NCBI GenBank assembly: GCA_030650395.1
Contig: JAUSDY010000171.1
Coordinates: forward strand, 6,554-70,553
Reading direction: 5' to 3'
From: Acidobacteriota bacterium
Lineage (GTDB): Bacteria; Acidobacteriota; Vicinamibacteria; Vicinamibacterales; UBA2999
Length of the DNA stretch: 64,000 bases
The translations under genes and the position numbers were made by a program. The first letter of the stretch is position 1; each line of letters starts with the position of its first letter. Positions 24,552 through 48,116 of this stretch are shown one piece after another. The notes beneath the pieces were generated by a model, which ran no database searches, was not told where the DNA came from, and was given only the letters and a program-made list of their open reading frames with translations.

Positions 24552-24587
24552 GGTCAGGGGCGCAATTCTTGCACAGGCGATCGGGTT

Positions 24588-27974: not shown

Positions 27975-28070
27975 GAAGGGCTTGGGGGCCTGGGGGCTCG
28001 AGGGCTTGGACGGTCAAGTCCTCAAGCCCTCAAGCCCTCAAGCCCTCTGCGGCCTCAAGCCCTCAAGCCC
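27975..28070. repeat. tandem-word composite palindrome (GGGCTTGR / CCTCAAGC octamers)
   Basis: gaagggcttgggggcctgggggctcgagggcttggac opposes gtcctcaagccctcaagccctcaagccct...cctcaagccctcaagccc. It fills the glnN-GT39 spacer up to 3 nt before ATG 28074. Confidence 0.85.
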
Positions 28071-28073: not shown

Positions 28074-30293
28074 ATGCGCGCCCTGCCCGCCCTTGTCTTC
28101 GTCATCGCGTTTGTGGTCCGGCTTGTCCACATCTGGCAGATCAAGCCGTCGCCGTTTTTTGACGTCCTGCTCGGCGACGCGGGCGGCTACGACGAGTGGG
28201 CGCGGCGGCTGGCGGGCGGCGACTGGATCGGCAGCGACGTGTTCTACCAGGCCCCGCTCTATCCATACTTTCTCGGCGTTCTCTATAAGCTGTTCGGCCA
28301 CGATCTGCTGATCGTCCGCATCTGCCAGGCGGCGATCGGGTCGGCGTCGTGCGCGCTGCTCGCGCTCGCGGGCGGGCGGCTCTTCTCGCCGCGGGTCGGG
28401 CTCATTGCCGGCCTCGCGCTTGCGCTCTACGCGCCGGCGGTGTTCTTCGACGCGCTGCTCCAGAAGTCGGTGCTCGACATGTTCTTCGTCTGCCTCAGCA
28501 TCTGGCTGGTCTCGCGAATTCTTGCTGGCTCGTCGACGCGGGCGTCGTGGATCGCGCTCGGGCTCGCAATGGGTGCCCTCGCGCTCACACGGGAAAACGC
28601 ACTCAGCTTCATTGCGGTGATTGTTGTCTTCGCCGTCGTTCAGAAGGGTTCAGAAGGGTTCAGAGGGGTTCTGAAAGGTTCTGACGGGTTCGGAAAGGTT
28701 CGGAAAGGTTCGAACCCTTCAGAACCCTTCAGAACCCTTCAGAACCATTCAGAACCATTCAGAACCTTTCAGAACCTCGGATGGTTTGTGGTCGGCTTGG
28801 CCGTGGTGTTGCTACCGGTAGCGATCAGGAACTATTCGGTAGGTGGCGGGCTGTATCTAACGACGTCGCAGTTCGGATCGAACTTCTACATCGGCAACCA
28901 TGCCGGAGCCGATGGCACATACGCGTCGATCCGGTTTGGCCGCGGCGCGCCGGAGTTCGAGCGGCAGGATGCGACGGAGGTGGCCGAGCAGGCCGTCGGC
29001 CGCAGCCTCACGCCGTCGGAGGTCTCGGCCTACTGGACCGATCGCGCTCTCCTTTTCATCACGTCACAGCCTGCCGAGTGGATCGCGCTGACCGGACGCA
29101 AGATCAGGCTGCTCGTCAATCGCTCGGAGATGCTCGACACCGAAAGCCAGGAGAGTTACGCCGAGTGGTCGTGGCCGCTGCGGATCGGCGGTTGGATCGG
29201 GCATTTCGGCGTGCTGGTGCCGCTGGCGCTGCTTGGAGTGATGGTGACGTGGCCGGAACGGCGCCGCCTCTGGATCCTCTACGCGATGGCGATCGCCTAC
29301 GCGGCCAGCGTGGTGATGTTCTATGTGTTCGCGCGCTATCGCTATCCGCTGGTGCCATTCCTGCTGTTGTTTGCGGCAGCCGGTGTGGCGTTGCCCTTCG
29401 ACTCAACATTTCGCGAGTACCTCGCGAAATGTTTCGCTCAGGGTTCGCGTCGATGGCAACTGGCGGCAATTTCGATCGCTGTTACCATTTTTGCGAATTG
29501 GCCTGTGTTGTCATCGACGCTCATGATGGCCATCACCGAGAACAATCTCGGCACGGCGTTGCAGGACGCCAAACGCTACGACGAGGCCGTCGTCCATCAC
29601 GAGCGCGCGGTCGCCTTGCAGCCGGATTACGCGCCGGCGTACAACAACCTCGGGGCCGCGCTACGCGCCGCCGGCCGTCTCGACGAAGCGGTCGCGCAGT
29701 ATCAGAAGGCGCTCGCGCTCAAGCCCGACTTCGGCAACGCGAGTTACAACCTCGCCAACGCCCTGCTCGAGCGCGGCCAGGCCGGCGCGTCGGTCGACGA
29801 GTTTCGGAAGGCGATTCAATTGACGCCCGATTCCGTGCAGGCGCACAACAACCTCGGAATCGCGCTGGCGGCCAAAGGCGATGCGGCGGGCGCGATGGCC
29901 GAGTTCCGCGCCGCGATCGCCCTCGACGGCACCTCGGTGCAGGCCCATCGCAATCTCGGCAACATGCTGGTCGACCGCGGCGAGCGGGCCGAGGGCATGG
30001 CTCACCTCGAGCGCGCGGTGCAGGTCGCGCCGGGCGAAGCCGACGCGCTCTTCGACATCGGCAGCATCCTGCTGCAGGAGCAGGATTTCAAGGGCGCCGC
30101 CGGGCGATTTCAGGCGGCGCTGCAAATCAAGCCCGACTCGCCCGAGACGTTGAACAACCTCGGGATCGCGTTCGCCAATCAGGGCAAGATCGCCGACGCC
30201 CTCACCTACTTCGAGCGCGCACTCAGCTTGCGGCCCAACTTCAACGACGCTCGCGTGAATCGTGATCAGGCTCGCGCCGTCCTCAAGAAATAA
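28074..30293 (+). CDS. membrane glycosyltransferase (GT39/PMT-ArnT-like) fused to C-terminal TPR repeats
   Basis: Multi-TM N-terminal half with a typical start (VVRLVHIWQIKPSPFFDVLLGDAGGYDEWA). The C-terminal ~280 aa are consecutive TPR units (YNNLGAALRAAGRLDEAVAQYQKALALKPDF...). Confidence 0.8.
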   Translation: MRALPALVFVIAFVVRLVHIWQIKPSPFFDVLLGDAGGYDEWARRLAGGDWIGSDVFYQAPLYPYFLGVLYKLFGHDLLIVRICQAAIGSASCALLALAGGRLFSPRVGLIAGLALALYAPAVFFDALLQKSVLDMFFVCLSIWLVSRILAGSSTRASWIALGLAMGALALTRENALSFIAVIVVFAVVQKGSEGFRGVLKGSDGFGKVRKGSNPSEPFRTLQNHSEPFRTFQNLGWFVVGLAVVLLPVAIRNYSVGGGLYLTTSQFGSNFYIGNHAGADGTYASIRFGRGAPEFERQDATEVAEQAVGRSLTPSEVSAYWTDRALLFITSQPAEWIALTGRKIRLLVNRSEMLDTESQESYAEWSWPLRIGGWIGHFGVLVPLALLGVMVTWPERRRLWILYAMAIAYAASVVMFYVFARYRYPLVPFLLLFAAAGVALPFDSTFREYLAKCFAQGSRRWQLAAISIAVTIFANWPVLSSTLMMAITENNLGTALQDAKRYDEAVVHHERAVALQPDYAPAYNNLGAALRAAGRLDEAVAQYQKALALKPDFGNASYNLANALLERGQAGASVDEFRKAIQLTPDSVQAHNNLGIALAAKGDAAGAMAEFRAAIALDGTSVQAHRNLGNMLVDRGERAEGMAHLERAVQVAPGEADALFDIGSILLQEQDFKGAAGRFQAALQIKPDSPETLNNLGIAFANQGKIADALTYFERALSLRPNFNDARVNRDQARAVLKK
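28638..28777. repeat. 140-nt composite palindrome of 10-nt words inside the GT39/TPR coding sequence
   Basis: 7 x gttc(a/t/g)ga(a/g/c)(a/g)g, centre ggttcgaacc (28708-17), then 7 x c(c/a/t)ttcagaac. Translated as KGSEGFRGVLKGSDGFGKVRKGSNPSEPFRTLQNHSEPFRTFQN between two TM segments. Confidence 0.9.
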
Positions 30294-30423
30294 GGTGCGT
30301 ACAGTGCGTACAGTTCCAAGAGTGCGTACAGTGCACCGAGTGCCTAGGAGTGCCAAACACTTGGCACCCCTGGCACACGAGCACTCTTCGCACTTCAGGC
30401 ACGGTACGCACCGTACGCACCTT
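30292..30423. repeat. tandem-word composite palindrome (GTGCGTACA 9-mers) between convergent genes; possible bidirectional terminator
   Basis: aaggtgcgtacagtgcgtac...gtacgcaccgtacgcacctt. The arms consist of about 7 gtgcNNNNN / NNNNNgcac units each and start inside the TAA of the GT39 gene. Confidence 0.8.
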
Positions 30424-30429: not shown

Positions 30430-33378
30430 TCACCAGCGGGTTACTAACCCCAGTCCGTACATCCGTCCCTGCATGATGCTGTTGGGCGAGAGATACGAGG
30501 TCGAGAGCGAGTTGGTCGTGATGTAGCTGATGATCGCGTCCGAGTTGTTGATGTTGAACACCTCGAACGTCGGCAGCACCGAGAAGCGGCCGAACCGGAA
30601 GGTCCTCGACACTTTGAAGTCGAGCTGAACGATCCGCTCCACCGATGTGGCGCGGACGGGCTCGAGGTTATAGGTGAGCGAGGTCTGTCCGAACGTCGTC
30701 GGCATGATGACCTGGCCGGCCGGGCAGGGCGCGGGACAGTTGGCCGGGTAGCGCGTGCTGCCGCGGGTCGCCGCCATCGTCCGCGAGCTGTTGGGACCGG
30801 CGTTGCTCTGGAACGCCATGCTGACGTTGACGCCGAAGCCGATTTCCCTGGTCCCAAACAGCTTCCAGCTCGGACGGTACGGGATGTCGAGCGCGTACTC
30901 GTCGCACAGGGCTTTGCCGTTGCCGCCGTAGTTGGGATCGTCGGGCGACGTGCAGTTCTTGACCCGCTCGCGCTCGATCGAAACGCCACCGCGCACCTGG
31001 CCGCCGCCTGGAATGCGCCAGCTGCTGTCGAAGTTGAACGCCTCGTAGGAATTCTGGCGCTCCGGATCGTAGGTATCCAGGTTGCTGGTGGGCCGGGCGG
31101 CAGCCGCGGTGCTCAACGCGTAGACCTCGAACGGCTGGCCTGTGAGCGGGTTGTAGAAGGTAAAGGGCGTGTAGTCGGACAGCGACAAGCTGCGGTTAAT
31201 GGTGGTCGTCAGGTTTCTGAAGTCGCCCTTCCACCACGATCCGCTCACGGACAGACCAGCGAGGAGCTCATGCTGGAGCTCGAGACCCGACTCGAGGTTC
31301 CAGGTGCGGGGATAGTCGCCGTACTCGTTGAGGGCGGCGATGCCGTAGTTGGCGGGCAGTCCCGCGAACGAGATCTCGCACGCCGCGCTCGGGTAGCCAG
31401 TGCAACGGAAGGTGCCGTCGGCGATGTCATTGCCGTTGACGTCGCGCCATGGCAATGACCGCGTCTCCCTGCGCAGAGGGTTGTAATTGGACGCGATGCC
31501 AGTCGTCCGCGACAGGTTGTAGCGATTGAGCGAATACTTGATCGCCGTGCGGCCGTTGCCGAACAGGTCGTAGACCAGCGCCATGCGGGGCGCAAAGTCA
31601 TTCCACGCGGGGACATCCTTGATCTCGTCGAACGAGCGCTCGGGCGCAAAACGCCCGGCCCCGGACTTGCCGGCCATCACCTTGGCGTTGAGCGTTTCCC
31701 ATCGCAACCCGACGTTGGCCGTGAGCCGGTTCAGGCGCCAGGAATCTTGGACAAAGATGCCGAGATCCCGATTGAGGCGCTCGCCGTAGATCAGCGGCGT
31801 ATTGTTGATGAGAACGCTGTCTGGCACGGACCAGCGCACGCCCGTACTGCTGCTGCGATACTGCTGCGTGAGGTCCGCATTGGCCTCGCGCGTGTGGATG
31901 AACTCGCCCTGTCGATTGGTGGCGCCGGCCTTGATGGTGTGGTCGCCCTTCACGTACGTGGCGGCGAAGTTCCAGTAGAAGGCGATCGGGCTCTCCGTGG
32001 TGTTAGTCGGGCCGGCCTTGGTGTAGCCGCCCAGATCGAGCTCGTTGTGGGCGGCAGTGGCGAACCACTCGGCGCTGCCGCGCGGCTTCTCGATGCCCTC
32101 CTGGTATTCGTTCGTGTAGTACTCGGTGTTGTTGGAGTAGCCGCCCTCCAGGAAGAGGGAGCTGGACACCGGCGACGACCACTTGATGGCCGTCGTATGG
32201 TACGCCGGCGAGTTCCAGACCGTGGACGCCGTCTCAGGATCGTAATTGGCCTGCATATCGTGCCCGCGGTACTTATCGACTTCGTCGAAGTAGCCGGAGA
32301 TCTTGTTCCTCGGCGTGACCTGCCAGGTGAGGCGCGCCGTGCCGCTCTTGATGAACTGGTCGTCGATGCCCTGCGACCCATCGTCGAAGTAGGTGTTGGC
32401 GATGAAGTTATTCACCGAGTAGTAGCGCGCCGACCCGAAGATCCACAGCTTGTCTTTCTGGATCGGACCACCGAGCGCAAGCGTGTAGTCGATGATGCGG
32501 TCGATCGCATTGCCGCTGGTCAGGCCCCTGGCCTTGTGTCGATCGGTCAGGTTGCTGGACTGCCAGGTTCCCGGCCGGGACGAGGCCTTGAAATCGCCAC
32601 TGAACCGGTTGCCGCCCTCGCGCGGGATCATGTTCATGCGCACGCCGCCCGACGAGTTCTCGGCGCCGATGCCGCTGGTCTGGACGCTGACTTCCGCATT
32701 CATCGCGTCGTTGAAGTAGCTCTGGATCGCGCCGTCGCCCTGCAGGCCGTTGACCATCATGCCGTCCACCAGGATGGTGGTGTTTGACGTGGACATGCCG
32801 TGCGTGGACATGTAGGTCTGCTGCATCGCGCGGGCACCACCCGTGTCGGGCAGGCTCAGGTTGACGCCCACCACGAGCTGGGCCATCCCCTGGATGGTCC
32901 GGCCAGTCGGGACGAGATCGATCGCTTCACGGTCCAGCACCGCCACCTTGGCCGCCGTCGTCACGTCCACCACCGGCGAGGCGCCGGTCACGGTGATGGT
33001 TTCCTCGAGAGCACCGACCGCAAGCTCGGCGTTGACGGTGGCCGTAAATTCGGCAGGCAGCAACAGGCCGTCGCGCCGGTAGGTCTTGAACCCGGGCAGG
33101 GTGAACGCCACATTGTAGGTGCCCGGCCTGAGGTCGGCGATGCGGTAGTTGCCGCTTTCGTCGCTGATCGCCGACTTGACCTTCTCGATCAGGACGTCGC
33201 TCGAGGCTTCAACCGTGACGCCGGGCATCGCGGCGCCCGTCGTATCTTTCACCACGCCGGTGATTGCACTCTGGGCGTATGCCGACGACGTCAGGAGCAT
33301 CGCTCCCGCGAACGCCAACAACGCTCTGACACCGACAAACCTTAAGGTTTGTCGCCACCCGACTATTCGTCGCGCCAT
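30430..33378 (-). CDS. TonB-dependent outer-membrane receptor with N-terminal CarboxypepD_reg domain
   Basis: Signal peptide, then ITGVVKDTTGAAMPGVTVEA (carboxypeptidase-regulatory-like), a plug region, a ~900-aa barrel and terminal aromatic W. ATG 33378. Confidence 0.85.
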   Translation of the reverse strand: MARRIVGWRQTLRFVGVRALLAFAGAMLLTSSAYAQSAITGVVKDTTGAAMPGVTVEASSDVLIEKVKSAISDESGNYRIADLRPGTYNVAFTLPGFKTYRRDGLLLPAEFTATVNAELAVGALEETITVTGASPVVDVTTAAKVAVLDREAIDLVPTGRTIQGMAQLVVGVNLSLPDTGGARAMQQTYMSTHGMSTSNTTILVDGMMVNGLQGDGAIQSYFNDAMNAEVSVQTSGIGAENSSGGVRMNMIPREGGNRFSGDFKASSRPGTWQSSNLTDRHKARGLTSGNAIDRIIDYTLALGGPIQKDKLWIFGSARYYSVNNFIANTYFDDGSQGIDDQFIKSGTARLTWQVTPRNKISGYFDEVDKYRGHDMQANYDPETASTVWNSPAYHTTAIKWSSPVSSSLFLEGGYSNNTEYYTNEYQEGIEKPRGSAEWFATAAHNELDLGGYTKAGPTNTTESPIAFYWNFAATYVKGDHTIKAGATNRQGEFIHTREANADLTQQYRSSSTGVRWSVPDSVLINNTPLIYGERLNRDLGIFVQDSWRLNRLTANVGLRWETLNAKVMAGKSGAGRFAPERSFDEIKDVPAWNDFAPRMALVYDLFGNGRTAIKYSLNRYNLSRTTGIASNYNPLRRETRSLPWRDVNGNDIADGTFRCTGYPSAACEISFAGLPANYGIAALNEYGDYPRTWNLESGLELQHELLAGLSVSGSWWKGDFRNLTTTINRSLSLSDYTPFTFYNPLTGQPFEVYALSTAAAARPTSNLDTYDPERQNSYEAFNFDSSWRIPGGGQVRGGVSIERERVKNCTSPDDPNYGGNGKALCDEYALDIPYRPSWKLFGTREIGFGVNVSMAFQSNAGPNSSRTMAATRGSTRYPANCPAPCPAGQVIMPTTFGQTSLTYNLEPVRATSVERIVQLDFKVSRTFRFGRFSVLPTFEVFNINNSDAIISYITTNSLSTSYLSPNSIMQGRMYGLGLVTRW
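33333..33358 (-). repeat. GTGG-headed stem-loop (REP-like) inside the receptor signal-peptide coding region
   Basis: Minus strand reads gtgg-cgacaaacc-ttaa-ggtttgtcg, translated as VGWRQTLRFVG. The paralogue at 33473-36457 lacks these ~10 residues. Confidence 0.85.
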
Positions 33379-33472: not shown

Positions 33473-36457
33473 TTACCACTTCAACTGCATACCGAGCCGT
33501 ATCATCCGGCCCTGGAGGACGCTCGAGGGCTGCAAGTACGCGGTGGTCGCGTAATTCACCCCGCGGTAGGCGATCGCGTAGTTCTTGTTGAACACGTTGA
33601 ACAGATCAGCCTGTCCCTGCACTCGATACGAGCCGATCTGGAACCACTTCGCAAAGCTGAGATCGAGCTGGTTGATGCGCGGCAGGAACTCGGTGCCCGG
33701 CGCGACCAGCGGCACTGTGACCGAGGCCGACGTCAGCGTCGGTGCAACCAGTTGGCCGGCCGGGCAGGGCGCCGGGCAGTTGGCTGGATAGCGAGTCGTC
33801 CTCGTGATCAGGAAGTTGGTGCCGACCGGGCTGCCGGTGTCGCCGTAGCCCGGGCCGCTGATCTTGTTGCCGGCCGTGGTGGTCAGGCCCAGCGGGCGGC
33901 CCGCAGAGCTCTGGAAGGCCGCGCTCACCGAGATGCCCCACGCGATCGGATACGTGCCGGCCAGCTTCAGCGTCGGCCGGTACGGAATGTCGTTCGTCGC
34001 GTCGTCGCAGTACAGCAGCATGGTCGGGTCGTCGGGCTCGTCGCAGATGTTGCGGAGGTTGCGCTCGGTGACCACACCGCCAAAGAGCGATCCGCCCCTC
34101 GGCAACCGCGCCTGCACGTTGAGGTCGTAACCCATATACACGTGCTTGCGCTCGGAACCGGCGTTGGTATCGAGCTGGTCGACGCGGCTGACCGCGGCCG
34201 GCGACACGTCGTAGATGGTGAAGGGCTTGCCGTCGATCGGATTGAAGATGTTGAACGGGATGTAGTCGGCCTTGGTGCGGAGCACGTTATCCGTCACTCG
34301 CAGTCGGTGGAAGGTGCGCCGGTACCAGTTGGCGCTCACCGACACTCGCGGCAACAGTTCGTGCTGGACGCCGGCCGTGGTCTCGATGTTGTAGACGCGC
34401 TTGAAGTTGGGATCGACACGATTCAGCTGGGCGCGGCCGAACGTGGCCGGCAACTGCGCCATGTTGATCTCGCAGCCGGGCGTCTGGTAGACGCATCCCA
34501 GTTCGCCCTGCGCGATGTCGTCGCGATTGGCGTCGATCCAGCTGAGCGACGCCGACGAGAGCGCGAGCGGGTTGTAGCGATTGGCGAAGAAGGTCGTGCG
34601 CGACTCGTTATAGCGGTTCAGCCCGATCTTGACTGCGGTCTTGGCATTGCCGAACAGGTCGTAGACCAACCCGAACCGCGGCGCAATGTCCTTCCACACC
34701 GGCATCGGAATCGGCTCGAAGTTGCGCTCGCCGATGAAGCGGCCCGCGCCCGACGATTGCTTCGAGACCTCGGACTTCAGGTACTCCCAGCGCAGACCGG
34801 CGTTCACGGTCAGGCGGTTGATCGCCCACGTGTCCTGTGCGTAGAGCCCCAGATCGCCGAGCAGCGCGTCCTGGTAGCGCAGCGGCGTGTTGAAGACCGT
34901 GACCGAGCTCGGCACGCCGTTGAGATACACCTGCTGCAGGTCGGCATTGGTCTCGCGCGTGTTGATGTAGACGCCCCAGTTGTACTGGAACCCGACCTTG
35001 ACGTTGTGCGCGCCGGTCACATACGACATCGACGCTTGCGTGTTGAACCGATCGGGATAGCGGCCGCCCCAGTTGGCCAGCCCGCTGCGCAGCGTCACGA
35101 GGGTCGCGTCGCGCCGGCTGGCGCCGGAGTACCAGTCCGCCGCGCCCCGATCCTTGTTGATGCCGTCCTGGTTGGTGATGACGTACTCTTCGTAATTGAA
35201 CGAGTAGCCCGCGTCGAACAACAGCCTGCTGCTGATCGGGCTCGTGTACTTCAGCACGGCGTCGTTGTAGCGCGGCGAGGTCCAGACCTGCGACGCCGTC
35301 AGGGGATCGTCGCCCGCGTTCATGCCGTGGCCGCGGAACTTGTCGACCTCTTCGTAATACAGCGACAGTTTGTTGCGCGGGCTCAACTGCCAGGTCAGGC
35401 GCAGCGTCGCGCTGTTGATGTTCTGGTCGTCGATGCCCTGTTCGCACGCGACGCGCCCGGCCTGGCAATCGGCCTGGGTGGCGCCGGACGGGACGTAGAA
35501 CGTGTCGGCAATCGGCGCGTCGACGCCGCTCAAGCGGCCGGCGGCGAAGAACCACAGCTTGTCGCGCTTGATCGGGCCGCCGAAGCCGCCGCTGAATTCG
35601 TAGATCTTCTTGATCTTGTCCACCGCGCGCAGCCCCTTTGCCCGCAGCGCGTCGGTCATGTTGTTGGCCTGCCACTTGCCGTCGTTCCAGGCGCCGAAGA
35701 ACGTGCCGTTGTACTGGTTGCCGCCGTCCTTCATGACGATGTTGACGCGCACGCCGCCCGGCGAGACGTCGGCGCCGGCGCCGGCCGTGGTGTAGCTCAT
35801 CTCCTGGATCATCTGGTTGTTGACGTACTGCTGCACGGCGCCGTCGCCGTCCAGGCCGTTGATCATCAACCCGTCAATCTGGACGATGTTGTTGGCCGAG
35901 GTCAGGCCGCGCGTCGACATGTAGGTCTGCTGCATCGCGCGCGAGCCGCCCACGTCGGGCCCGGCCAGCGCCACGCCCGTCACCAGCTGCGACATGCCGT
36001 AAATCGTCCGCCCGCTCGGGATCGCGTCGAGCACGTCGCGCGACAGCACCTGCACGCGCGACGTGCTCGAGACGTCAACGATCGGCGACTCGCCCGTGAC
36101 CGTGATCGTTTCCTCGAGCGCGCCGACCTTGAGCTCGGCGTTGAGCGTGGCCGTAAAGTCGGACGGCAGTTCAAGGGCGTCGCGTTTATAAGTGTTGAAG
36201 CCCGGCAACGTGAAGGTCACCGAGTAAAGACCGGGCCGCAGGTCGGTGATGCGGTAGGAGCCGTTACCGTCGCTGACGACGGACTTCACCCGTTCGATCA
36301 GGACCGGGCTCGCGGCTTCGACGGTCACGCCCGGCATTGCCGCGCCCGAGGCATCCCGGACCGTGCCGGTAATCACGCTCTGTGCATAAGCCGCGGTCGA
36401 GAGCAGCATCACTCCCGCACACGCCCACACCGCTCTCGCCAACATTCTTCGCGCCAT
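33473..36457 (-). CDS. TonB-dependent outer-membrane receptor with N-terminal CarboxypepD_reg domain (tandem paralogue)
   Basis: Same architecture as 30430-33378. Many blocks are shared (TITVTG.SP.VDV, MQQTYMST.G, RLTWQ..PRNK.S.Y). Confidence 0.85.
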   Translation of the reverse strand: MARRMLARAVWACAGVMLLSTAAYAQSVITGTVRDASGAAMPGVTVEAASPVLIERVKSVVSDGNGSYRITDLRPGLYSVTFTLPGFNTYKRDALELPSDFTATLNAELKVGALEETITVTGESPIVDVSSTSRVQVLSRDVLDAIPSGRTIYGMSQLVTGVALAGPDVGGSRAMQQTYMSTRGLTSANNIVQIDGLMINGLDGDGAVQQYVNNQMIQEMSYTTAGAGADVSPGGVRVNIVMKDGGNQYNGTFFGAWNDGKWQANNMTDALRAKGLRAVDKIKKIYEFSGGFGGPIKRDKLWFFAAGRLSGVDAPIADTFYVPSGATQADCQAGRVACEQGIDDQNINSATLRLTWQLSPRNKLSLYYEEVDKFRGHGMNAGDDPLTASQVWTSPRYNDAVLKYTSPISSRLLFDAGYSFNYEEYVITNQDGINKDRGAADWYSGASRRDATLVTLRSGLANWGGRYPDRFNTQASMSYVTGAHNVKVGFQYNWGVYINTRETNADLQQVYLNGVPSSVTVFNTPLRYQDALLGDLGLYAQDTWAINRLTVNAGLRWEYLKSEVSKQSSGAGRFIGERNFEPIPMPVWKDIAPRFGLVYDLFGNAKTAVKIGLNRYNESRTTFFANRYNPLALSSASLSWIDANRDDIAQGELGCVYQTPGCEINMAQLPATFGRAQLNRVDPNFKRVYNIETTAGVQHELLPRVSVSANWYRRTFHRLRVTDNVLRTKADYIPFNIFNPIDGKPFTIYDVSPAAVSRVDQLDTNAGSERKHVYMGYDLNVQARLPRGGSLFGGVVTERNLRNICDEPDDPTMLLYCDDATNDIPYRPTLKLAGTYPIAWGISVSAAFQSSAGRPLGLTTTAGNKISGPGYGDTGSPVGTNFLITRTTRYPANCPAPCPAGQLVAPTLTSASVTVPLVAPGTEFLPRINQLDLSFAKWFQIGSYRVQGQADLFNVFNKNYAIAYRGVNYATTAYLQPSSVLQGRMIRLGMQLKW

Positions 36458-36738
36458 GTAATCCCTCCAAGCCTGCCGGCGACTCCGATTGCGGGCGCTG
36501 CCTGGCGCCGCGGCAGGGAAACCAACGGACCGACGAATCGAACAACACAGAAAACGCCCGACGGATAAGTGCGCGGAATGACTGCGACGACGGTCGCGAA
36601 TGGGAGGCTAAACCCATGGCCAGTCGGAGTCAATGACAAACTGTGACAACGACGGCCAACTTATTGGATCTAAAGGCGTTCGATTTAATTATGGGTCTCA
36701 AAACCGGAACAGATAGATCGGGGCGGTAAGATAGCGGG

Positions 36739-37149
36739 ATGAAACTGTCATTTTTCGGCGCCCTGGCGCTGGCTCTGGCGGTGGGTGGCTGCGGCAAAGA
36801 CAACCCCACCTCGCCGACTGCGAACGTCCCGTTCTCGACGGTCGACGTTCGCGTGGGCACCGGCGCGGAAGCGACCGCCGGCAAGCTGGTCCAGCTCAAT
36901 TACTCGGGCTACCTGTACAGCGCCACAGCAGCCGAGAACAAAGGGACGCCGTTCGATGCCGGGCCCTTGACGTTTACGGTGGGGGCGGGCGTGATTCCCG
37001 GCTTCAGCCAAGGCGTGACGGGCATGCGCGTGGGCGGGATCCGCCGCGTGATCATCCCGCCAAATCTCGGCTACGGAAACCAGGCGAACGGCGCAATCCC
37101 AGCGAACTCGACGCTGGTCTTCCAGATCGAGCTGCTCGCGGTTCAGTAG
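36739..37149 (+). CDS. FKBP-type peptidyl-prolyl cis-trans isomerase lipoprotein
   Basis: Lipobox LAVGGC and FKBP domain (FDAGPLTFTVGAGVIPGFSQGVTGMRVGGIRRVIIPPNLGYG...LVFQIELL). Confidence 0.9.
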   Translation: MKLSFFGALALALAVGGCGKDNPTSPTANVPFSTVDVRVGTGAEATAGKLVQLNYSGYLYSATAAENKGTPFDAGPLTFTVGAGVIPGFSQGVTGMRVGGIRRVIIPPNLGYGNQANGAIPANSTLVFQIELLAVQ

Positions 37150-37234
37150 CGCGGTGCCGTAGCGCGGAACTTTAGTTCCGCGATCGCCCACACGGATTTC
37201 GCCGGTCCATAGCGGACCTAAAGGTCCGCTCTAC
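37146..37234. repeat. cluster of GTAG-headed stem-loops (REP-like)
   Basis: Partial head gtagcgcggtgcc (37146-58, including the FKBP TAG stop). Then gtag-cgcggaac-ttta-gttccgcg (37159-82) and the inverted agcggacc-taaa-ggtccgct-ctac (37211-34). Confidence 0.9.
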
Positions 37235-37243
37235 CTGTCACGT

Positions 37244-38581
37244 TTAGCGCGGAAAGCGTCCGAGCGCGACGAGCAATTCCAGGCGCGCTTGCCGCACCGC
37301 ATCCTCGCCCTGCGCGACGATGGTCTCGAGATCGCGCACCGAGCGTTGCGCATCGATCACCTCGATGTTGGTCGTGGACCCGGCATCGAAGGCGATGATC
37401 GTGATCTTCAAGACTTCGTTGGCGTGCTGTGCCGCCTGCCGCGCGCGCACCAGCGCGCGCTCCTGGGCCTCGACCGCCGCGCGCGCGACGCGCACTTCCG
37501 ACCGCGCCCGGATCTGCACCTGCTCCAGTGAGAACGACGACGCCTGCAAGCTCGCCTCGCGCTGGCGCCGCACCGCGCGGCGCGAGCCGGCGTCGTAGAG
37601 CGGCTGCGACACCTGGAACGACAGGCTCCAGCTGCGCGACGGCTGAAAGAGGCCCGACGGCGCGAGCAGCTGCGGGCCGAAGGTGACGGCCGCCGCCGGC
37701 CACCAGTCTTTCGAGCTGTCGTGAACGACCCGATCGCTCGCCTCGCGTTCGGCGGTGAACAGCTGCACGTCGGTTCGACCCGGCATCCATTCAGCCTCGG
37801 CAGTTTCAACCGGCACCTCGAAGGCCGGCTCGCCATTCACATCGACCGGCGCATTCGCGGCCAGCAGAACACCGAGCGCCTCTTGCGCGCGCCTGACGTT
37901 GAGGCGAAAGATTTCGACCAGCGCTTCGTTGCTCGCGAGGATCTGCGCCGACCGCAGCTCGTTCAACCGGCTGCCGACGCCGCCTTCACGCCGCCTGGTG
38001 TTGTAGTCGAGTTGTCCGCGCGCGGTCTGGATCGCGTTCACGCTCACCTCGACCTGCCGCTTCTGCGCGATCACGGCAAGATAGGCTGACGCGGTCGCGA
38101 CCGCGATTTGGCGGCGCGTCTCTGTGGTCGACAGGCGCGCAATCTCGACCTGGTCGAGCGCCTGCGCGCGTGCGGCCCACTGTGCGGCCGCGAGGATGGG
38201 CGCGGTGGCCGAGAGTCCGAACAGGGTCTGGTTCTGCGGCTGCACCGTTTCGCCGCCGAACGAGCGGCCGCTGTCGAGCGTGGTGTTGGTGATGTTGGCG
38301 CCGAGGCGCGGCATCACCGCCGCGCGGACCTGCTGCAGGATGGCTTCGGAGCGCAGGATGTTGGTCGAGGCAATCGCGATCGTCGGGTTCTTCTCCAACG
38401 CGCGCGCGATGGCCTCGTCGAACGTCACGGTTTCCACGGGTACCCCGAGGGCTTGAGGGCTCGAGGGCTTGAGCCTGCCCTGAGCGAAGGTGACTCCGCT
38501 TGCGGAGTCGGCTGAGTCGAAGGGGGCTTGAGAGCCCTGCGCCAACGCAGGCGTGGCGAACGACACCGCCAGCAACAACAT
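37244..38581 (-). CDS. alternative model: separately initiated TolC/OprM-like outer-membrane efflux protein
   Basis: In-frame ATG 38581 (GTG 38584) opens MLLLAVSFATPALAQG..., followed by two OMF repeat halves. This model is nested in the long ORF. Confidence 0.4.
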   Translation of the reverse strand: MLLLAVSFATPALAQGSQAPFDSADSASGVTFAQGRLKPSSPQALGVPVETVTFDEAIARALEKNPTIAIASTNILRSEAILQQVRAAVMPRLGANITNTTLDSGRSFGGETVQPQNQTLFGLSATAPILAAAQWAARAQALDQVEIARLSTTETRRQIAVATASAYLAVIAQKRQVEVSVNAIQTARGQLDYNTRRREGGVGSRLNELRSAQILASNEALVEIFRLNVRRAQEALGVLLAANAPVDVNGEPAFEVPVETAEAEWMPGRTDVQLFTAEREASDRVVHDSSKDWWPAAAVTFGPQLLAPSGLFQPSRSWSLSFQVSQPLYDAGSRRAVRRQREASLQASSFSLEQVQIRARSEVRVARAAVEAQERALVRARQAAQHANEVLKITIIAFDAGSTTNIEVIDAQRSVRDLETIVAQGEDAVRQARLELLVALGRFPR

Positions 38582-41500
38582 CACGGCACCAGCTGCCGCC
38601 GGTGCAGGCGAACCTGACGAACCCGAACGCCGTCCGCGTCCTGGCGCGATCGATCGAATCACGACGTAGAGCACCGGGATGAAGACGATCGACAGGAATG
38701 TCGAGGCCAACATGCCGCCGGCCACCGCGGTGCCGACCGAGTTGCGCGCCGCCGCGCCCGCACCGGTCGCCAGCGCCAGCGGTAGCACGCCGAGGACGAA
38801 GGCCAGCGACGTCATCAGGATCGGCCGCAACCGAATCCGCGCCGACTCGATCGCGGCGTCGACGATCGACAGCCCGCGCCCGCGCAGCTGCTCGGCAAAC
38901 TCGACGATCAGGATCGAGTTCTTCGCCGCCAGCCCGACGAGCAGCACCAGGCCGACCTGGCAGAACACGTCGTTGTTGAAGCCGCGCACCAGCTGCGCAG
39001 ACAGCGCCCCAAATACCGCCAGCGGCACGCCGAGCAGGATGATCAGCGGCAGGACGAACGACTCGTATTGCGCCGACAGCACCAGGTAGACGAGCAGCAG
39101 GCTCAGGCCGAAAATCAACCCGGCCTGGCCGCCGGCCCGGCGCTCCTCAAGCGATTGCCCGGCCCACGCGAAGTCAAACCCCGGCGGCAGATTCGCGCGC
39201 GCCAGGTCCTCCATCGCCTGCAGCGTCTGTCCCGAGCTCTGGCCGGGAGGCGGGTTGCCCGAGATCTCCGCCGACCGGAACAAATTGAAGTGGCTGATCA
39301 CCTGCGGCGCGGTCGTCTCGCGCAGGCGGACGACGCTGTCGAGCGGGATCATGTCGCCGCTCGACGCCCGCGCATACAGCTGCTTCAGGTCGGTCGGGCT
39401 GGCCCGGAACCGTTGATCCGCCTGCACGTAGACGCGGTAGGCGCGGTTGTTGAAATCGAAGTCGTTCACGTACTGCGAGCCCAGGAACACTTGCAGCGCA
39501 TCGGTCACCTCGCGCAGCGGCAGGCCCAGGCTGCGCGCCTTGTCGCGATCGATGTCCACGATCAATTGCGGATCGTCGGCACGGAAGCTGCTGAAGGCGC
39601 CCTGGACTTTTCCACTCTGATTGGCCGCCCCCATCAAGCCGAAGGTGGCGCCCGCCAGCGTGTTGATGTCGTTGGAGCCGGTTTGATCCAGCACTTCGAA
39701 CTGGAAGCCACCGAAGGCACCCACCCCCTGGATCGACGGCGGCGGGAACGCGACCACGATGGCGCCGGGAATCATGAAGAGCGGACCGCTCAAGCGCTGC
39801 AGGACCGCCGACAGCGATTGATCTGCATTGGGCCGCTCGGCATAGTCCTTCAGCCGGACGAAGATCATGCCGTTGTTCGGCGCCGCGCCGGAAAAGCTGA
39901 AGCCCATCACGGAAAACGCCGCGGCCACGTCCTTGTCGGCGTAGAGGATCTGCTCGGCCTTCTTGGCAATCTCCGTGGAGTATTCGAGCGACGCCCCGGC
40001 GGGCGCCTGCACGATCGCCATGAAAAACCCTTCGTCTTCCTGCGGCACGAACGACGAGGGCACCATCTGGAACACCGTCCACGTCGCCCACAGCCCGCCG
40101 GCAAACAGCAGCAGCATCGCGTATCGCAGCCGCAACGCCCCGCGCACGAGGCGGACGTAGCCGTTGGTCCCGGCATCGACGACGCGATTGAATCCGGTGA
40201 AGAAGCGGCCGTGCGTGTGCGACTCCTTGTCGAGCAGCAGCGCCGCCAGCGCGGGCGTCAGCGTCACGGCGTTGAACACCGACAACACCACCGAAAACGC
40301 GATGGTCAGCGAGAACTGCTGATACAAGCGCCCGGTCACGCCGGGGAAGAACGCCACGGGCACGAACACCGCCACCAGCACGATGCCAATCACGACCACC
40401 GCGCCAAACACTTCGCGCATCGCGTCAACAGCGGCCTGCCGCGCCGACTTGTGAAACTCGCGCATGTGCCGCTCGATGTTCTCGATCACCACAATCGCAT
40501 CGTCGACCACGATGCCGGTGGCCAGCACGATGCCGAACAGCGTCAGCGTGTTGATCGAGAAGTCGAACAGCTTGATGAAGGCGAACGTCCCGATCAGTGA
40601 CACCGGGATCGTGATGGCCGGAATGATCGTGCTCCGCCAGTTCTGCAGGAACAGGAACATCACCAGGATCACAAGGCCGATCGCTTCCGCGAGCGTCCAC
40701 AGCACTTCGACGATCGATTCGCGCACGACGACGACGTTGTCGAAGGCGACCTGCCACTCGAGGCCCGGCGGGAAGCTCAGCTTGAGCCGATCCATCTCGG
40801 CGACCACGCCTCTGAACACTTCGATCGCATTGGCCGAGGGCAGCAGCGAAATGCCGATGCCCTGGGCTTCGAGGCCGAGGAACCGCAGGTTGGACGAATA
40901 GGTTTCGGCGCCGAGCTCGACACGGCCGACGTTTTTCACGCGCACCAGCGCGCCGTCCTTGCCGGCCTTGACGACGACGTCCTCGAACTCGGGCGCCTCG
41001 GACAGACGGCCCATGGCGCGCACGCTGATGGTGTATTGCTGACCGACAGTAGCCGGCGCATCACCCAGCGCGCCCGCGGCCACCTGCACGTTCTGTTCGC
41101 GCAGCGCGCCCAGCACATCGGCCGCCGTGATGTTGTGGCCCGCCAGCTTCGACGGATCGAGCCAGAGCCGCATCGCGAACTTGCGCTCGCCGAACACGAT
41201 CACGTCGCCGACGCCGGGGACACGCTTGATCGCGTCGCGGATGTACAAGTCGATGTAGTTGCTGATGAACAGGCTCGAATAGCGGTTGTCCTTCGAAAAG
41301 AACCCGAGCCCGCCGATGAAGCCGCTAGCGACCTTGACGACCGAAATGCCGTTCTGGCGCACCTCCGCCGGCATGCGGCCGAGCGCCTGGTTGACGCGGT
41401 TCTGCACGTCGACGGCCGCGAGATCCTGATCGCGATCGACGTCGAACGTGACGGTGATCGTCGCAAAGCCGCTGTTGGTGCTGGACGAGGTCATGTAGCT

Positions 41501-41728
41501 CATGCCCTCGACGCCGTTGATGGCCTGCTCGAGCGGGGTGGTCACCGCGCTCTCGACGGCTTGCGCGTTGGCACCGGTATAGAACGCGGACACCGTGACC
41601 GCCGGCGGCGCCAGGTCCGGATAGCGGGCAATCGGCAGCGTCGGAATCGACACCGCGCCGGCGAGGATGATCAGCAGCGAGCAGACCGTTGAGAGGACGG
41701 GCCTGCGAATGAACACGTCGGCCATCAT
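37244..41728 (-). CDS. RND (AcrB/MexB-type) efflux permease continuing without a stop codon into a TolC/OprM-like outer-membrane factor (single 1494-codon ORF)
   Basis: The first ~1048 codons are typical HAE1 RND (MMADVFIRRPVLS...). Then come a G/S/P/A linker, a signal-like segment VMLLLAVSFATPALA-QG and ~430 codons of OMF repeats. No in-frame stop separates them. Confidence 0.8.
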   Translation of the reverse strand: MMADVFIRRPVLSTVCSLLIILAGAVSIPTLPIARYPDLAPPAVTVSAFYTGANAQAVESAVTTPLEQAINGVEGMSYMTSSSTNSGFATITVTFDVDRDQDLAAVDVQNRVNQALGRMPAEVRQNGISVVKVASGFIGGLGFFSKDNRYSSLFISNYIDLYIRDAIKRVPGVGDVIVFGERKFAMRLWLDPSKLAGHNITAADVLGALREQNVQVAAGALGDAPATVGQQYTISVRAMGRLSEAPEFEDVVVKAGKDGALVRVKNVGRVELGAETYSSNLRFLGLEAQGIGISLLPSANAIEVFRGVVAEMDRLKLSFPPGLEWQVAFDNVVVVRESIVEVLWTLAEAIGLVILVMFLFLQNWRSTIIPAITIPVSLIGTFAFIKLFDFSINTLTLFGIVLATGIVVDDAIVVIENIERHMREFHKSARQAAVDAMREVFGAVVVIGIVLVAVFVPVAFFPGVTGRLYQQFSLTIAFSVVLSVFNAVTLTPALAALLLDKESHTHGRFFTGFNRVVDAGTNGYVRLVRGALRLRYAMLLLFAGGLWATWTVFQMVPSSFVPQEDEGFFMAIVQAPAGASLEYSTEIAKKAEQILYADKDVAAAFSVMGFSFSGAAPNNGMIFVRLKDYAERPNADQSLSAVLQRLSGPLFMIPGAIVVAFPPPSIQGVGAFGGFQFEVLDQTGSNDINTLAGATFGLMGAANQSGKVQGAFSSFRADDPQLIVDIDRDKARSLGLPLREVTDALQVFLGSQYVNDFDFNNRAYRVYVQADQRFRASPTDLKQLYARASSGDMIPLDSVVRLRETTAPQVISHFNLFRSAEISGNPPPGQSSGQTLQAMEDLARANLPPGFDFAWAGQSLEERRAGGQAGLIFGLSLLLVYLVLSAQYESFVLPLIILLGVPLAVFGALSAQLVRGFNNDVFCQVGLVLLVGLAAKNSILIVEFAEQLRGRGLSIVDAAIESARIRLRPILMTSLAFVLGVLPLALATGAGAAARNSVGTAVAGGMLASTFLSIVFIPVLYVVIRSIAPGRGRRSGSSGSPAPAAAGAVMLLLAVSFATPALAQGSQAPFDSADSASGVTFAQGRLKPSSPQALGVPVETVTFDEAIARALEKNPTIAIASTNILRSEAILQQVRAAVMPRLGANITNTTLDSGRSFGGETVQPQNQTLFGLSATAPILAAAQWAARAQALDQVEIARLSTTETRRQIAVATASAYLAVIAQKRQVEVSVNAIQTARGQLDYNTRRREGGVGSRLNELRSAQILASNEALVEIFRLNVRRAQEALGVLLAANAPVDVNGEPAFEVPVETAEAEWMPGRTDVQLFTAEREASDRVVHDSSKDWWPAAAVTFGPQLLAPSGLFQPSRSWSLSFQVSQPLYDAGSRRAVRRQREASLQASSFSLEQVQIRARSEVRVARAAVEAQERALVRARQAAQHANEVLKITIIAFDAGSTTNIEVIDAQRSVRDLETIVAQGEDAVRQARLELLVALGRFPR
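38445..38537. repeat. compound element (GGGCTTGA words + flank-conserved/variable-stem unit) inside the OMF coding region
   Basis: gagggcttgagggctcgagggcttgag + ccctgagcgaagg-t-gactccg-cttg-cggagtc-ggct-gagtcgaaggg + ggcttgagagccc. Translated as SQAPFDSADSASGVTFAQGRLKPSSPQALG. Confidence 0.85.
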
Positions 41729-43006: not shown

Positions 43007-43870
43007 ATGGGTGAGATGCAGGACGTACTGAAGGGTTTCAGCCGCGGGATGTACAGCAACTGGATGTGGCACAAGCCGCTGCAGCTGCTCGTCGATGCCG
43101 GCGAAGGCCTGCAGCTCGCTCTCGGCTCCAATGTGTTCTCCCCATCAGTGCTCGCCGTCACCCACGGCCACTCCGATCACGTCATGGGGATCCCGGGCCT
43201 GATCGCATCCAGGCGCTTCGGCAAGGGCGCGGTCGACAAGCCGCTGACCGTCTACTATCCGGAACAATCGCGCGGCGTGCAGGGCGTTCGCGAGCTGCTC
43301 GGCATTTCCTACGCGGGCGTGGTGTTCCCCGTGACCTGGACGGCGCTCACGGCCGGCGCGATCGTGCCGCTGGGAAAGACGCGAAGCCTGCATGCCTTTG
43401 CGGTGCGGCACACGGCCGCTGAACCAGCGCTTGGCTATAAAGTGGTCGAGACCAGACGGCGGCTCAAGCCGGAGTTTGCCGCCTTGACGCAGGCAGAGGT
43501 CGAGGCCAGTGCGCGCCAAGGCCGGCGCGACGAGCTGCTCGAGGAGATGGCGCACGTCACGTTCGCGCATTCCGGGGATGCCATGCCGATCGACCCCGCG
43601 CTCGTGGCCGGCGCCGATCTGCTGGTGCATGACGCGACCTTTCTGAGCGAGCCCGATCGGCGCGAGCCGATTCACGCCACCACCGAAGAAGCCCTCGAGG
43701 TCGCGCGCGCGGCGGCCGTCAAGACGTTGGTGCTGTACCACCTCTCGATTCGCTACGATCGGGCCACGGCCCTTCCCATCCTTCGCGCGCAAGTCGCTGC
43801 CAGCGGTTTCACAGGCGAGTGCCTGCTGCTCGATGAGGGCGAATTCATCGAAATAACCAAGAACCAATAA
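43007..43870 (+). CDS. MBL-fold metallo-hydrolase (RNase Z/ElaC-like)
   Basis: THGHSDH (HxHxDH) motif and later His/Asp ligands (HDATF, YHLS). 287 aa. Confidence 0.7.
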   Translation: MGEMQDVLKGFSRGMYSNWMWHKPLQLLVDAGEGLQLALGSNVFSPSVLAVTHGHSDHVMGIPGLIASRRFGKGAVDKPLTVYYPEQSRGVQGVRELLGISYAGVVFPVTWTALTAGAIVPLGKTRSLHAFAVRHTAAEPALGYKVVETRRRLKPEFAALTQAEVEASARQGRRDELLEEMAHVTFAHSGDAMPIDPALVAGADLLVHDATFLSEPDRREPIHATTEEALEVARAAAVKTLVLYHLSIRYDRATALPILRAQVAASGFTGECLLLDEGEFIEITKNQ

Positions 43871-43935
43871 CCAATAACCAAAACGGAGAGCCGCCTTTCG
43901 TTATTTCTTTATTCGTTATTTGTTATTCTTCTTAG
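43850..43935. repeat. AATAACCAA-word element (A-rich arm then T-rich arm)
   Basis: gaaataaccaagaaccaataaccaataaccaaaacg ... cgttatttctttattcgttatttgttattcttctt. The left arm encodes the MBL tail ITKNQ and its stop. Arm complementarity is only partial. Confidence 0.75.
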
Positions 43936-45742: not shown

Positions 45743-46186
45743 TGGCGATTGTCCTTCCGCTCTGCGCCGCATACGCGCTGTGGTGCCTGTTCACGATGCC
45801 GGCAGGACCGATCACCACGCCAGACTCGGTGCACTATCTCAATGCCTCGCCGATCGTTCCGCTCGGCTACCCGCTCTTCCTGAACCTCGTCGGCGCGCGC
45901 GGCGCGATGTTCGCGCAGCCGATGCTGTTTGCGGCGGCGCTCGCCGTGCTCGGGCGCGAAACCATTCGCCTTGTGGACGGTCGATCGCCTGCGGCACCCC
46001 GACACCGCTGCCCCGCTCACGCAGTTCATCGCGAGCAATCGGCCGCTGCCGTTCGAAAAGGAGGCGTTCCGCGTCGATCCCGACGTCACGATCGCCTTCA
46101 CCGCCGACGGCTTATGGCCGGCGATCACCACGGCAGCGCTGTATGGTGTCTGGGCGGTTTGGGTTAAGTTGAAAGTTGAAAGTTGA
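45742..46186 (+). pseudogene. frameshifted small membrane-protein gene (possible remnant)
   Basis: ATG 45742 (TGATG overlap with gatA) opens a high-GC3 hydrophobic frame up to about 45955. High GC3 then continues in the +1 frame (KPFALWTVDRL...WAVWVKLKVES, stop 46184-86). The original frame becomes Arg-rich and low-GC3. Confidence 0.4.
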
Positions 46187-46318
46187 AAGTTGAGAGTTTC
46201 AGTTGCCAGTTCAGTTGGAAGTGTGAAGTCTTACGTTCGCGTGGGCGAGTCGAACTTTGAACTCAAAACTGAACTTGAAACTGAAACTTCCAACTTTCAA
46301 CTTTCAACTTTCAACTTG
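46166..46318. repeat. 153-nt tandem-word composite palindrome (GTTGAAA heptamers + AGTTCAGTT words)
   Basis: gttgaaa x3-4 + gagtttcagttgccagttcagttggaagt opposes aactgaacttgaaactgaaacttcc + aactttc x3-4, with a ~40-nt central loop. Confidence 0.9.
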
Positions 46319-47535: not shown

Positions 47536-47555
47536 ACCTCAAGGTTTGTCGCCAC
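47530..47555 (-). repeat. GTGG-headed stem-loop (REP-like) that interrupts the acyl-CoA synthetase reading frame
   Basis: Minus strand reads gtgg-cgacaaacc-ttga-ggtttgtcg. The loop TGA (47539-41) is the in-frame stop. A 21-nt tandem duplication (47551-71 / 47572-92) is adjacent. Confidence 0.9.
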
Positions 47556-47979: not shown

Positions 47980-47997
47980 AGTGCGCGGGATTGTAGT

Positions 47998-48116
47998 TGA
48001 GTTCAGAGTGCAGCGTTAAGAGTTAAGAGTTAAGAGTTAAGAGTTAAGAGTTAAGAGTTAAGAAAAATGCCTCGAGTTCGGAGTTCTTAACTCTAAACTC
48101 TTAACGCTGAACTCAG
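47998..48116. repeat. tandem-word composite palindrome (7 x GTTAAGA heptamers)
   Basis: tgagttcag(agtgcag)cgttaagag pairs with ctcttaacgctgaactca. The left arm carries 7 GTTAAGA units (48015-63) against about 2 in the right arm. Confidence 0.9.

Follow-up and report, generated by a model that had tools for sequence, protein, structure and literature searches.

Repetitive extragenic palindromes (REPs) and the REP-associated tyrosine transposases (RAYTs, or TnpAREP), domesticated enzymes that spread them through a genome, together form REPtrons, and the described REPtrons are the frame for a set of hairpins that recur in a 64-kb stretch of 65% G+C from an Acidobacteriota contig (JAUSDY010000171.1), the whole of which is called the window here. 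Group 3 REPtrons, which are the same as subclass 2.5 (PMC6006769), have short perfect palindromes in which one mismatched stem pair is enough to reduce cleavage strongly or to abolish it (PMC8266576). In REPtron Mb of Marinomonas, the loop is T12 T13 T14 A15, and systematic evolution of ligands by exponential enrichment (SELEX) keeps T12, T13 and A15 and leaves position 14 free; the GTAG foot acts in cleavage and in the choice of a CT or CA site, and GTGG redirects cleavage to CC (PMC8266576). Twenty-four families of GTAG repeats (Di Nocera et al. 2013, PMC3733652) display complementary stem changes, coexistence, GTGG variants, hetero-dimers, intragenic copies, and a TAG donated as a stop codon. 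GTAG repeats are recorded from Proteobacteria, Cyanobacteria, Chloroflexi, and the Planctomycetes-Verrucomicrobia-Chlamydiae (PVC) group, and from Acidobacteria only Y1 transposases associated with terminal inverted repeats (TIRs) are reported (PMC3733652); just class 3 enzymes with atypical structures are listed for Acidobacteria by Quentin et al. (PMC6006769). No published description of the present elements in soil Acidobacteriota was found, nor, in the literature searched, any paper linking RAYTs or REPINs (inverted REP doublets) to Acidobacteriota. The hairpins of the window are very probably GTAG-type REPs, non-autonomous DNA elements of 24-27 nt that belong to Acidobacteriota REPtron systems, and the host of these REPtrons is probably a Vicinamibacterales genome.

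The complete copies, lettered by stem class, and the partial copies and duplication beside them are located in the window as follows:

12794-12818, plus strand: REP class a, GTAG-GGCACCCC-TTTAT-GGGGTGCC
16188-16213, minus strand: REP class f, GTAG-GGACAAACC-TTCA-GGTTGGTCC, with one mismatch
22802-22826, plus strand: REP class a, its loop overlapping the stop codon of an AMP-binding gene
33333-33358, minus strand: REP class e, GTGG-CGACAAACC-TTAA-GGTTTGTCG, in frame at the 5' end of a TonB-dependent-receptor-like gene
37146-37158, plus strand: partial head-side copy of class b, GTAGCGCGG followed by TGCC (from the sequence and Tandem Repeats Finder, TRF)
37159-37185, plus strand: REP class b, GTAG-CGCGGAAC-TTTA-GTTCCGCG with a 3' ATC tail
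37211-37234, minus strand: REP class c, GTAG-AGCGGACC-TTTA-GGTCCGCT
47530-47555, minus strand: REP class e, GTGG-CGACAAACC-TTGA-GGTTTGTCG, inside an AMP-binding gene
47556-47593, minus strand: 21-nt tandem duplication of host flank and REP head (CGCCAC), TRF period 21 x 2.1
60610-60635, minus strand: REP class d, GTAG-AGGCGGGTC-TTTA-GACCCGCCT, between a HU-family gene and a tRNA gene
63471-63497, plus strand: second copy of REP class b, in the infC-rpmI spacer
63857-63880, minus strand: REP class a, GTAG-GGCACCCC-TTTA-GGGGTGCC
63881-63897, minus strand: partial head-side copy of class a, GTAGGGCACCCC with a 5-nt spacer, of the same architecture as 37146-37158

Each complete copy fits a single description, in which GT[AG]G is followed by a stem of 8-9 bp, a loop that starts with TTNA, and the complementary stem. 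All ten have GT[AG]G directly 5' of the palindrome, and the loop consensus TTNA (TTTA, TTCA, TTAA, TTGA) is closed by an almost invariant C:G pair. Eight of the ten are singletons; the only pair, formed by classes b and c, has differing stems arranged tail-to-tail. Every copy listed in an earlier, sequence-only reading of the window is present, at the coordinates given there or at most 1 nt away: the 27-mer shared by the two class-b copies spans 37159-37185 and 63471-63497, one base from where it had been placed, and copy f, which had been read on the plus strand at 16184-16213, is placed on the minus strand at 16188-16213 with one stem mismatch because of its homology with copies in other metagenome-assembled genomes (MAGs) and the TTNA rule. 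That reading described a constant loop and unrelated stems. The loop is indeed constant, but its consensus is TTNA and not the set TTTA/TTAA/TGAA, copy f having TTCA on the minus strand; several stem classes do differ, but b and c are close relatives, as are e and f, and their differences consist of compensated pairs. Under a counting rule of GT[AG]G, a stem of 8-10 with at most two mismatches, and a loop starting with TTNA, the 10 copies of the window compare with 0.11 (maximum 2) in 100 first-order Markov controls. Perfect hairpins with a stem of at least 8 and a loop of 3-7 number 28, against 12.3 +/- 3.0 in dinucleotide shuffles, and GT[AG]G abuts the stem in nine of the 28, against 0.125 in shuffles. 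The enrichment over shuffled controls that had been proposed as a check is thereby confirmed within the 64-kb window.

No RAYT gene lies in the window, as had been stated from the sequence: tblastn was negative, and a profile of 34 RAYTs run against the six-frame translation gave a best E of 5.9. Such genes accompany the same elements elsewhere. In contig L040, from one MAG, an open reading frame (ORF) of 169 residues is situated between inverted class-b copies at 6898-6921(+) and 7502-7525(-), with further copies outside. Its product has an HUH motif (PDHLH) and the motif LWQEGYFDR, and scores 26.8 against Pfam Y1_Tnp (cut-off 23); together with two homologues it attains 83.9-109.1 on the NCBIfam equivalog model NF047646 REP_Tyr_transpos, 'REP-associated tyrosine transposase' (cut-off 80), and the same three proteins score 20-36 bits on the NCBIfam IS200 model, below the cut-off of 55. 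The best PDB match of the 34-sequence RAYT profile is E. coli TnpAREP (4ER8, E = 4.9e-15), followed by ISDra2 and IS608-type transposases. The 34 aligned RAYTs (alignment A1) are 158-177 residues long and share the motifs PDHLH, LWQ and YIxxNPV, with H66, H68, W104 and Q105 invariant and a consensus of MPDHLH...LWQEGY. There are 116 homologues of the L040 RAYT in the protein collection, several of them named RayT by the Joint Genome Institute (JGI). A convergent gene of the DinB_2 family follows the RAYT gene in at least three different assemblies according to Pfam; DinB-like neighbours are found at 7669-7911 in L040 (identified as DinB-like by reading of the sequence only), 6589-7101 in L131, 1020-1493 in L140, and 757-1230 in L143. 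This shared neighbour suggests that the RAYT gene is vertically inherited at a fixed chromosomal location, and no tnpB gene was called next to the RAYT genes. The closest RAYT among the Logan contigs (P0003) is from a run other than SRR13727527, the source of the Logan contig that is identical to the window.

A metagenome scan supplied 80 further RAYT loci, making 81 with L040, at which headed, perfect hairpins within 350 bp of the gene were counted. Hairpins of this kind are present at 61 of the 81 loci and total 184, of which 148 have a GTAG head and 36 a GTGG head; 144 of the 184 have a TTNA loop. Heads point outward (plus strand upstream of the gene, minus strand downstream) in 126 cases, and 58 are oriented oppositely. 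The density of REPs at RAYT loci is approximately 3 per kb, compared to 0.16 per kb in the already REP-rich window. Most RAYT loci have one dominant flanking stem. Class b flanks the RAYTs of L040, L135, L139, L140 and L143, and class d those of L047 and L093: the L047 RAYT, 51% identical to that of L040, is flanked by GTAG-AGGCGGGTC-TT(C/T)A-GACCCGCCT, one element being identical to class d of the window, and L093 has the same stem. On the Vicinamibacterales contig L133, two RAYT genes separated by 1.2 kb share 71% identity; hairpins with the stem AGGCGGACC stand on either side of one gene and hairpins with the stem GGGCCGACC on either side of the other, the foot being GTAG and the loop TTCA in each class. 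RAYTs whose REPs have other loops tend to be mutual nearest relatives (L055 and L058, with TGTY; L051, L065 and L105). The sequence-only reading had proposed that the hairpins are REPs of the RAYT-dependent kind and had asked whether their stem classes flank RAYT genes; in related genomes and metagenomes classes b and d do so, in inverted orientation, whereas no such case was found for class a or classes e/f. Among the RAYT loci examined, class c likewise lacked a cognate RAYT.

Some RAYT loci carry larger arrays. Around the RAYT of L127 (5667-6858), the REPs alternate between two partner types, CGCGGGGC and AGCGGGAC, and in L129 (5305-6806) five or more direct copies precede the RAYT gene. 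Both arrays recall clusters of the kind termed bacterial interspersed mosaic elements (BIMEs), and the pairing of classes b and c in the window.

The hairpins beside RAYT genes also permit a test of base pairing on 111 distinct 24-mers, picked by foot and loop spacing alone. Paired cells amount to 85.7% in these candidates, against 56.8% in shuffles (0 of 500 reach the observed value) and 32-40% after sliding of the partners; covariation scores 0.738, compared with 0.221 in controls. Double-sided changes occur at all eight stem pairs; the loop-closing pair is C:G in 100 of the 111, and pairing is often absent at the first position of the stem. Variants of family b comprise seven that are compensated and six that are not. 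The covariation signature of selection on structure that had been claimed for the window is therefore correct, pairing and covariation being far above controls. It probably arises because copying accepts none but perfect hairpins as substrates. The different stems are best taken to represent separate REP families or sub-families that were amplified from individual master copies, rather than one family drifting under structural constraint; in at least some cases, such as the L133 paralogues, a stem family is tied to its own RAYT.

The elements recur in other Acidobacteriota and differ in position between related genomes. In the genome collection, 45 contigs contain the class-b 24-mer in exact form, all from Acidobacteriota MAGs, one of which is titled Vicinamibacterales. 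These contigs contain 55 class-b copies with unrelated flanks, which are therefore independent insertions; the unit they define is 24 nt with a weak 3' A(T) tail, and preference in the flanks is confined to a pyrimidine at -1 and to A(T) at +1/+2. The stem classes GGCACCCC, CGCGGAAC, AGGCGGGTC and GGACAAACC recur in other Acidobacteriota MAGs. Two contigs of MAG RIFCSPLOWO2_12_FULL_67_14b, L005 and L020, are syntenic with the window at approximately 74-90% identity, mostly 83-86%. The class-e insertion at 33333 is absent from the L005 orthologue, and a class-b copy is present in an L005 spacer where the window has none. The comparison of orthologous spacers, also proposed from the sequence, thus reveals that the presence and position of REPs differ in a relative of approximately 84% identity, and therefore that the elements move.

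Head-side partial tandem duplications with periods of 13, 17 and 21 nt adjoin REPs of three classes in the window (37137-37167, 63881-63897 and 47550-47593), and duplicate the foot together with the first bases of the stem and part of the flank. A head-side partial copy is located upstream of 7 of the 55 class-b copies in other MAGs, and the arrangement is seen in L010, L017, L019, L034, L035 and L042. These duplications may have been left behind by insertion or by slippage.

The spacer containing classes b and c is bounded by the stop codons of an FKBP gene (36739-37149, Pfam FKBP_C) and a convergent AcrB-OEP gene (37244-41728), and reads GTAGCGCGG-TGCC-GTAG-CGCGGAAC-TTTA-GTTCCGCG-ATC ... AGCGGACC-TAAA-GGTCCGCT-CTAC, the two complete copies being tail-to-tail and 28 nt apart. 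The partial copy at 37146-37158 is one unit of a 13-nt tandem duplication (TRF at 37137-37167, period 13 x 2.4) that includes the FKBP stop codon TAG at 37147-49. This stop had been thought to be supplied by the REP; it is native, as the corresponding codon of the L020 orthologue is also TAG, without a REP at that place. In the centroid fold of the b and c pair, two hairpins form separately, and the minimum-free-energy fold adds just a short extra pairing that includes the class-b hairpin. The L020 orthologue of class c has the stem AGCGGATC/GATCCGCT, one compensated pair apart from that of the window, and class b, which is 5' of class c in the window, is 3' of the orthologous class c in L020. 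The neighbouring uninterrupted ORF of 1494 codons at 37244-41728 (-) combines an AcrB-type resistance-nodulation-division (RND) pump (Pfam ACR_tran, residues 2-1025) with an outer-membrane efflux protein (OEP, residues 1103-1285), with a signal-peptide-like stretch between the two parts; the arrangement is the same in the L020 orthologue.

Among the described systems, it is group 3 (subclass 2.5) that these RAYTs appear to match, an assignment made from motifs only. As in REPtrons Mb (Marinomonas sp. MWYL1) and Sm (Stenotrophomonas maltophilia K279a; PMC8266576), the palindromes are short and perfect with a 5' GTAG, several REPtrons are possible in one genome, and the group 3 motifs DH[LF]H, WQ and YI..NP and length of approximately 150-170 residues (PMC6006769, Table 1) are matched by alignment A1. 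The loop rule of REPtron Mb, which fixes positions 1, 2 and 4 and leaves position 3 free, is the TTNA of 144 of the 184 RAYT-flanking copies, so that a SELEX rule from one Marinomonas enzyme gains support from natural variation beside RAYTs only 35-50% identical to the query. The hosts of group 3 are Xanthomonads, Pseudomonads and Marinomonas, whereas here they are Acidobacteriota. The present stems are of 8-9 bp and abut GTAG, whereas Mb has 5 bp and a 2-nt spacer and the loop of Sm consists of 3 nt that include a key G; unlike either, the present elements have a nearly invariant loop-closing C:G pair. With the GTAG superfamily, which includes SMAG (PMC3733652), they share the GTAG/GTGG foot, stems within 6-13 bp, complementary changes, coexisting families, hetero-dimers, the TAG of the foot as a stop codon, intragenic copies, and association with a tyrosine transposase, but TTNA is not among the main loop types of that superfamily (TY, CMA).

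The REPs and BIMEs of E. coli with TnpAREP (YafM; 4ER8; PMC3479197) involve the same enzyme family, a GTAG foot and a REP-flanked RAYT gene. However, the palindromes of this group 2 system are long and imperfect, contain a conserved bulge, have a loop that is non-specific, and are organized in BIMEs, whereas those described here are short and perfect with a sequence-specific loop. The REPINs of Pseudomonas fluorescens (Bertels and Rainey) are likewise non-autonomous and spread by a vertically inherited, single-copy RAYT, but they are inverted REP doublets that act as one long hairpin, whereas the window has mostly singletons and its sole pair, b and c, has different stems that fold separately. 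This kind of element is well known, and nothing categorically new is added and no new question about REP biology is opened; rather, typical GTAG-foot REPtron systems are extended to Acidobacteriota, in Vicinamibacterales-like soil bacteria.

By extension from the enzymes of other clades (PMC8266576, PMC3479197), a RAYT encoded elsewhere in the genome would bind the REP as a folded single-stranded DNA hairpin and would read its loop, its perfect stem, and the 5' GTAG, which may also help to choose a nearby CT or CA cleavage dinucleotide (CC for GTGG). The enzyme would then cut and rejoin the strand, by which copies would spread to new sites. Propagation would be restricted to copies that keep a perfect hairpin, and it is because only such copies would be propagated that the stems could vary between families and yet always be complementary.

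Several observations weigh against this account of GTAG-type REPs mobilized by cognate RAYTs. Binding and cleavage of REP DNA by a RAYT are known from the TnpAREP of other clades only, so that their attribution to the present enzymes would be by analogy. No conserved cleavage dinucleotide (CT for GTAG, CC for GTGG) was detected at a fixed offset in the flanks, where just eight strict GTGG copies were available. The link to RAYTs is seen in related genomes and metagenomes; the RAYTs of the source genome itself were not seen, and the closest MAG is approximately 84% identical. Neither in any RAYT locus examined nor in viral contigs was there a cognate RAYT for class a or classes e/f. Class b is common to RAYTs that are only 59-60% identical (L135, L139, L140), whereas paralogues that are 71% identical carry different stems, and a strict rule of one RAYT to one stem is therefore not demonstrated. 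A Mantel test that compared protein distances between RAYTs with edit distances between stems at 24 loci gave r = 0.10, a value reached by 263 of 2000 permutations and not significant, in a test of little power because nearly all RAYT pairs are 50-80% divergent. The link between enzyme and stem is real but not strict.

An alternative that shares the DNA-level view holds that one RAYT, or fewer RAYTs than there are classes, serves all of the stems by reading the foot, the C-TTNA-G tip and the pairing, and that the stems drift by compensated change. The occurrence of the same class b beside RAYTs of 59-60% identity, the non-significant Mantel test, and the lack of a cognate RAYT for classes a and e/f among the loci examined agree with this, as do the single compensated pair that separates class c of the window from that of L020, the compensated variants of family b that are as common as uncompensated ones, and the only moderate effect of stem swaps on group 3 TnpAREP in vitro (PMC8266576). 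It is nonetheless unlikely: the adjacent paralogues of L133 each have their own stem class on both sides, one stem dominates at most RAYT loci, and in the published view each RAYT has its own REP family (PMC6006769). A broader proposal, equally doubtful, is that the RAYTs of this clade may recognize nothing beyond the GT[AG]G foot, the C-TTNA-G tip and the perfection of the pairing, that one enzyme may mobilize several classes including a and e/f, that stems may diversify by compensated change in a manner decoupled from it, and that the head-side duplications may be the footprint of insertion or strand transfer.

It is far less probable that the hairpins act primarily at the RNA level, as intrinsic terminators or 3'-end stabilizers of mRNA, and are conserved for that function rather than spread as DNA. 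Most copies overlap or directly follow a stop codon, their GC-rich stems fold stably alone, and in other organisms effects of REPs on termination and on the stability of mRNA have been reported (PMC3733652). However, a T-run follows just 3 of 20 hairpin sides, and the two that were checked against the neighbouring gene are on the non-transcribed side; orientation relative to the upstream gene is mixed, with six sense and three antisense; copies occur within coding sequence; identical copies with unrelated flanks are found at more than 50 sites; and the physical association with RAYT genes is contrary to such a role. Intrinsic terminators in particular were rejected for lack of T tracts on the transcribed side and of any terminator-like site in 36000-38500. 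Only a tRNA passes the Rfam gathering score in the window, and the REPs have no match even at E <= 10. The weakest explanation, in which the hairpins derive from autonomous IS200/IS605 elements as their ends or remnants, or from derivatives of these in the manner of miniature inverted-repeat transposable elements (MITEs), is scarcely credible, for although the associated protein is in the same Y1 HUH superfamily (Pfam Y1_Tnp) and ISDra2 and IS608-type transposases are its next PDB matches after TnpAREP, the RAYTs fall short of the IS200 cut-off (20-36 bits against 55) while exceeding that for RAYTs, recur beside DinB_2 in several genomes, as expected of a domesticated single-copy gene, and have no tnpB called beside them, and the elements are single hairpins of 24-27 nt with a GTAG foot rather than left and right ends enclosing cargo.

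The copies of the window affect neighbouring genes in several ways. The gene for an M16 peptidase ends in the TAG of the class-f head (16210-12), and the AMP-binding gene at 22815-24647(-) ends in a TAA that is the TTA of the class-a loop (22815-17); both stops, the latter under the name fadD, had been located within REPs by the sequence-only reading, rightly. Relative to L005, the gene at 30430-33378 (-) has an in-frame insertion of 30 nt that includes the class-e copy at 33333-33358 and adds 10 residues to the N-terminal (signal-peptide) region of a CarboxypepD_reg/Plug receptor-like protein. Another AMP-binding (acyl-CoA synthetase) gene, 46324-48015 (-), is split by the class-e copy at 47530-47555, which adjoins the 21-nt tandem duplication; Pfam positions 4-133 and 138-384 are encoded in one frame and parted only by the TGA of the REP loop (47539-41), and the gene is either a pseudogene or a split gene. 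These effects (3'-end hairpins, donated stops, an interrupted gene, and an in-frame insertion) are by-products. REPs thus create false gene ends, and they also appear to break short-read assemblies of such MAGs, several matches being within a few hundred bases of contig ends.

Two other kinds of hairpin in the window seem more unusual than the REPs. One is a second family with the form CCTGAGCGA-[variable perfect hairpin]-GAGTCGAAGG, of which the window has eight copies, each with a different stem, and other contigs have more:

9229-9265, plus strand: second-family copy
22491-22534, plus strand: second-family copy
24601-24650, minus strand: second-family copy
29397-29440, minus strand: second-family copy
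38481-38521, plus strand: second-family copy
57536-57576, minus strand: second-family copy
60756-60801, minus strand: second-family copy
60828-60871, plus strand: second-family copy
L030, 7150-7330: second family, outside the window
L042, 981-1022: second family, outside the window

The predicted structure has a covarying outer helix NCCU/AGGN, an internal loop GAGCGA/GAGUCGA, and the variable stem. A hammerhead-like reading was dropped because the core does not fit CUGANGA...GAAA and has no Rfam match. Four copies are in frame within real genes, always antisense: in an aconitase domain, YdjM, a PMT_2/TPR protein, and the AcrB-OEP linker. The copy at 38481 is absent from the L020 orthologue, and the second element is therefore mobile. 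An extended form, GTCAT-CCTGAGCGA-hairpin-GAGTCGAAGGA(C/T)C, occurs in approximately 13 viral contigs; as approximately 16 chance matches are expected by arithmetic in the viral scan, only these approximately 13 matches sharing the GTCAT...GGA(C/T)C consensus are credible. For the second family there was no match in Rfam, no RAYT beside the copies in a RAYT-profile search, and no paper found by sequence. Class 3 TnpA_Y1 enzymes in Acidobacteria are accompanied by REP-like structures with a 'CnGA foot' (PMC6006769), and a link of the second family to these, suggested by analogy, may be a lead.

The other kind is built from repeats: in many spacers, a tandem repeat with a unit of 7-10 nt in 3-9 copies is followed by a tandem repeat of its reverse complement, giving long hairpins of repeat units, at the following positions in the window:

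4004-4067: repeat-built hairpin
25531-25595: repeat-built hairpin
27978-28070: repeat-built hairpin
28638-28776: repeat-built hairpin
30295-30421: repeat-built hairpin
43852-43927: repeat-built hairpin
46166-46318: repeat-built hairpin
47999-48114: repeat-built hairpin
48819-48894: repeat-built hairpin
63722-63789: repeat-built hairpin

Rfam returned miRNA-like noise only for these hairpins. The orthologous spacer of L005 lacks the array at 30295-30421, and the repeat unit differs at each locus, for example (GTTCAGAAGG)x7.4 with (GAACCCTTCA)x6.5 at one and (GAGTTAA)x9.3 with (TCTTAAC)x4.3 at another.

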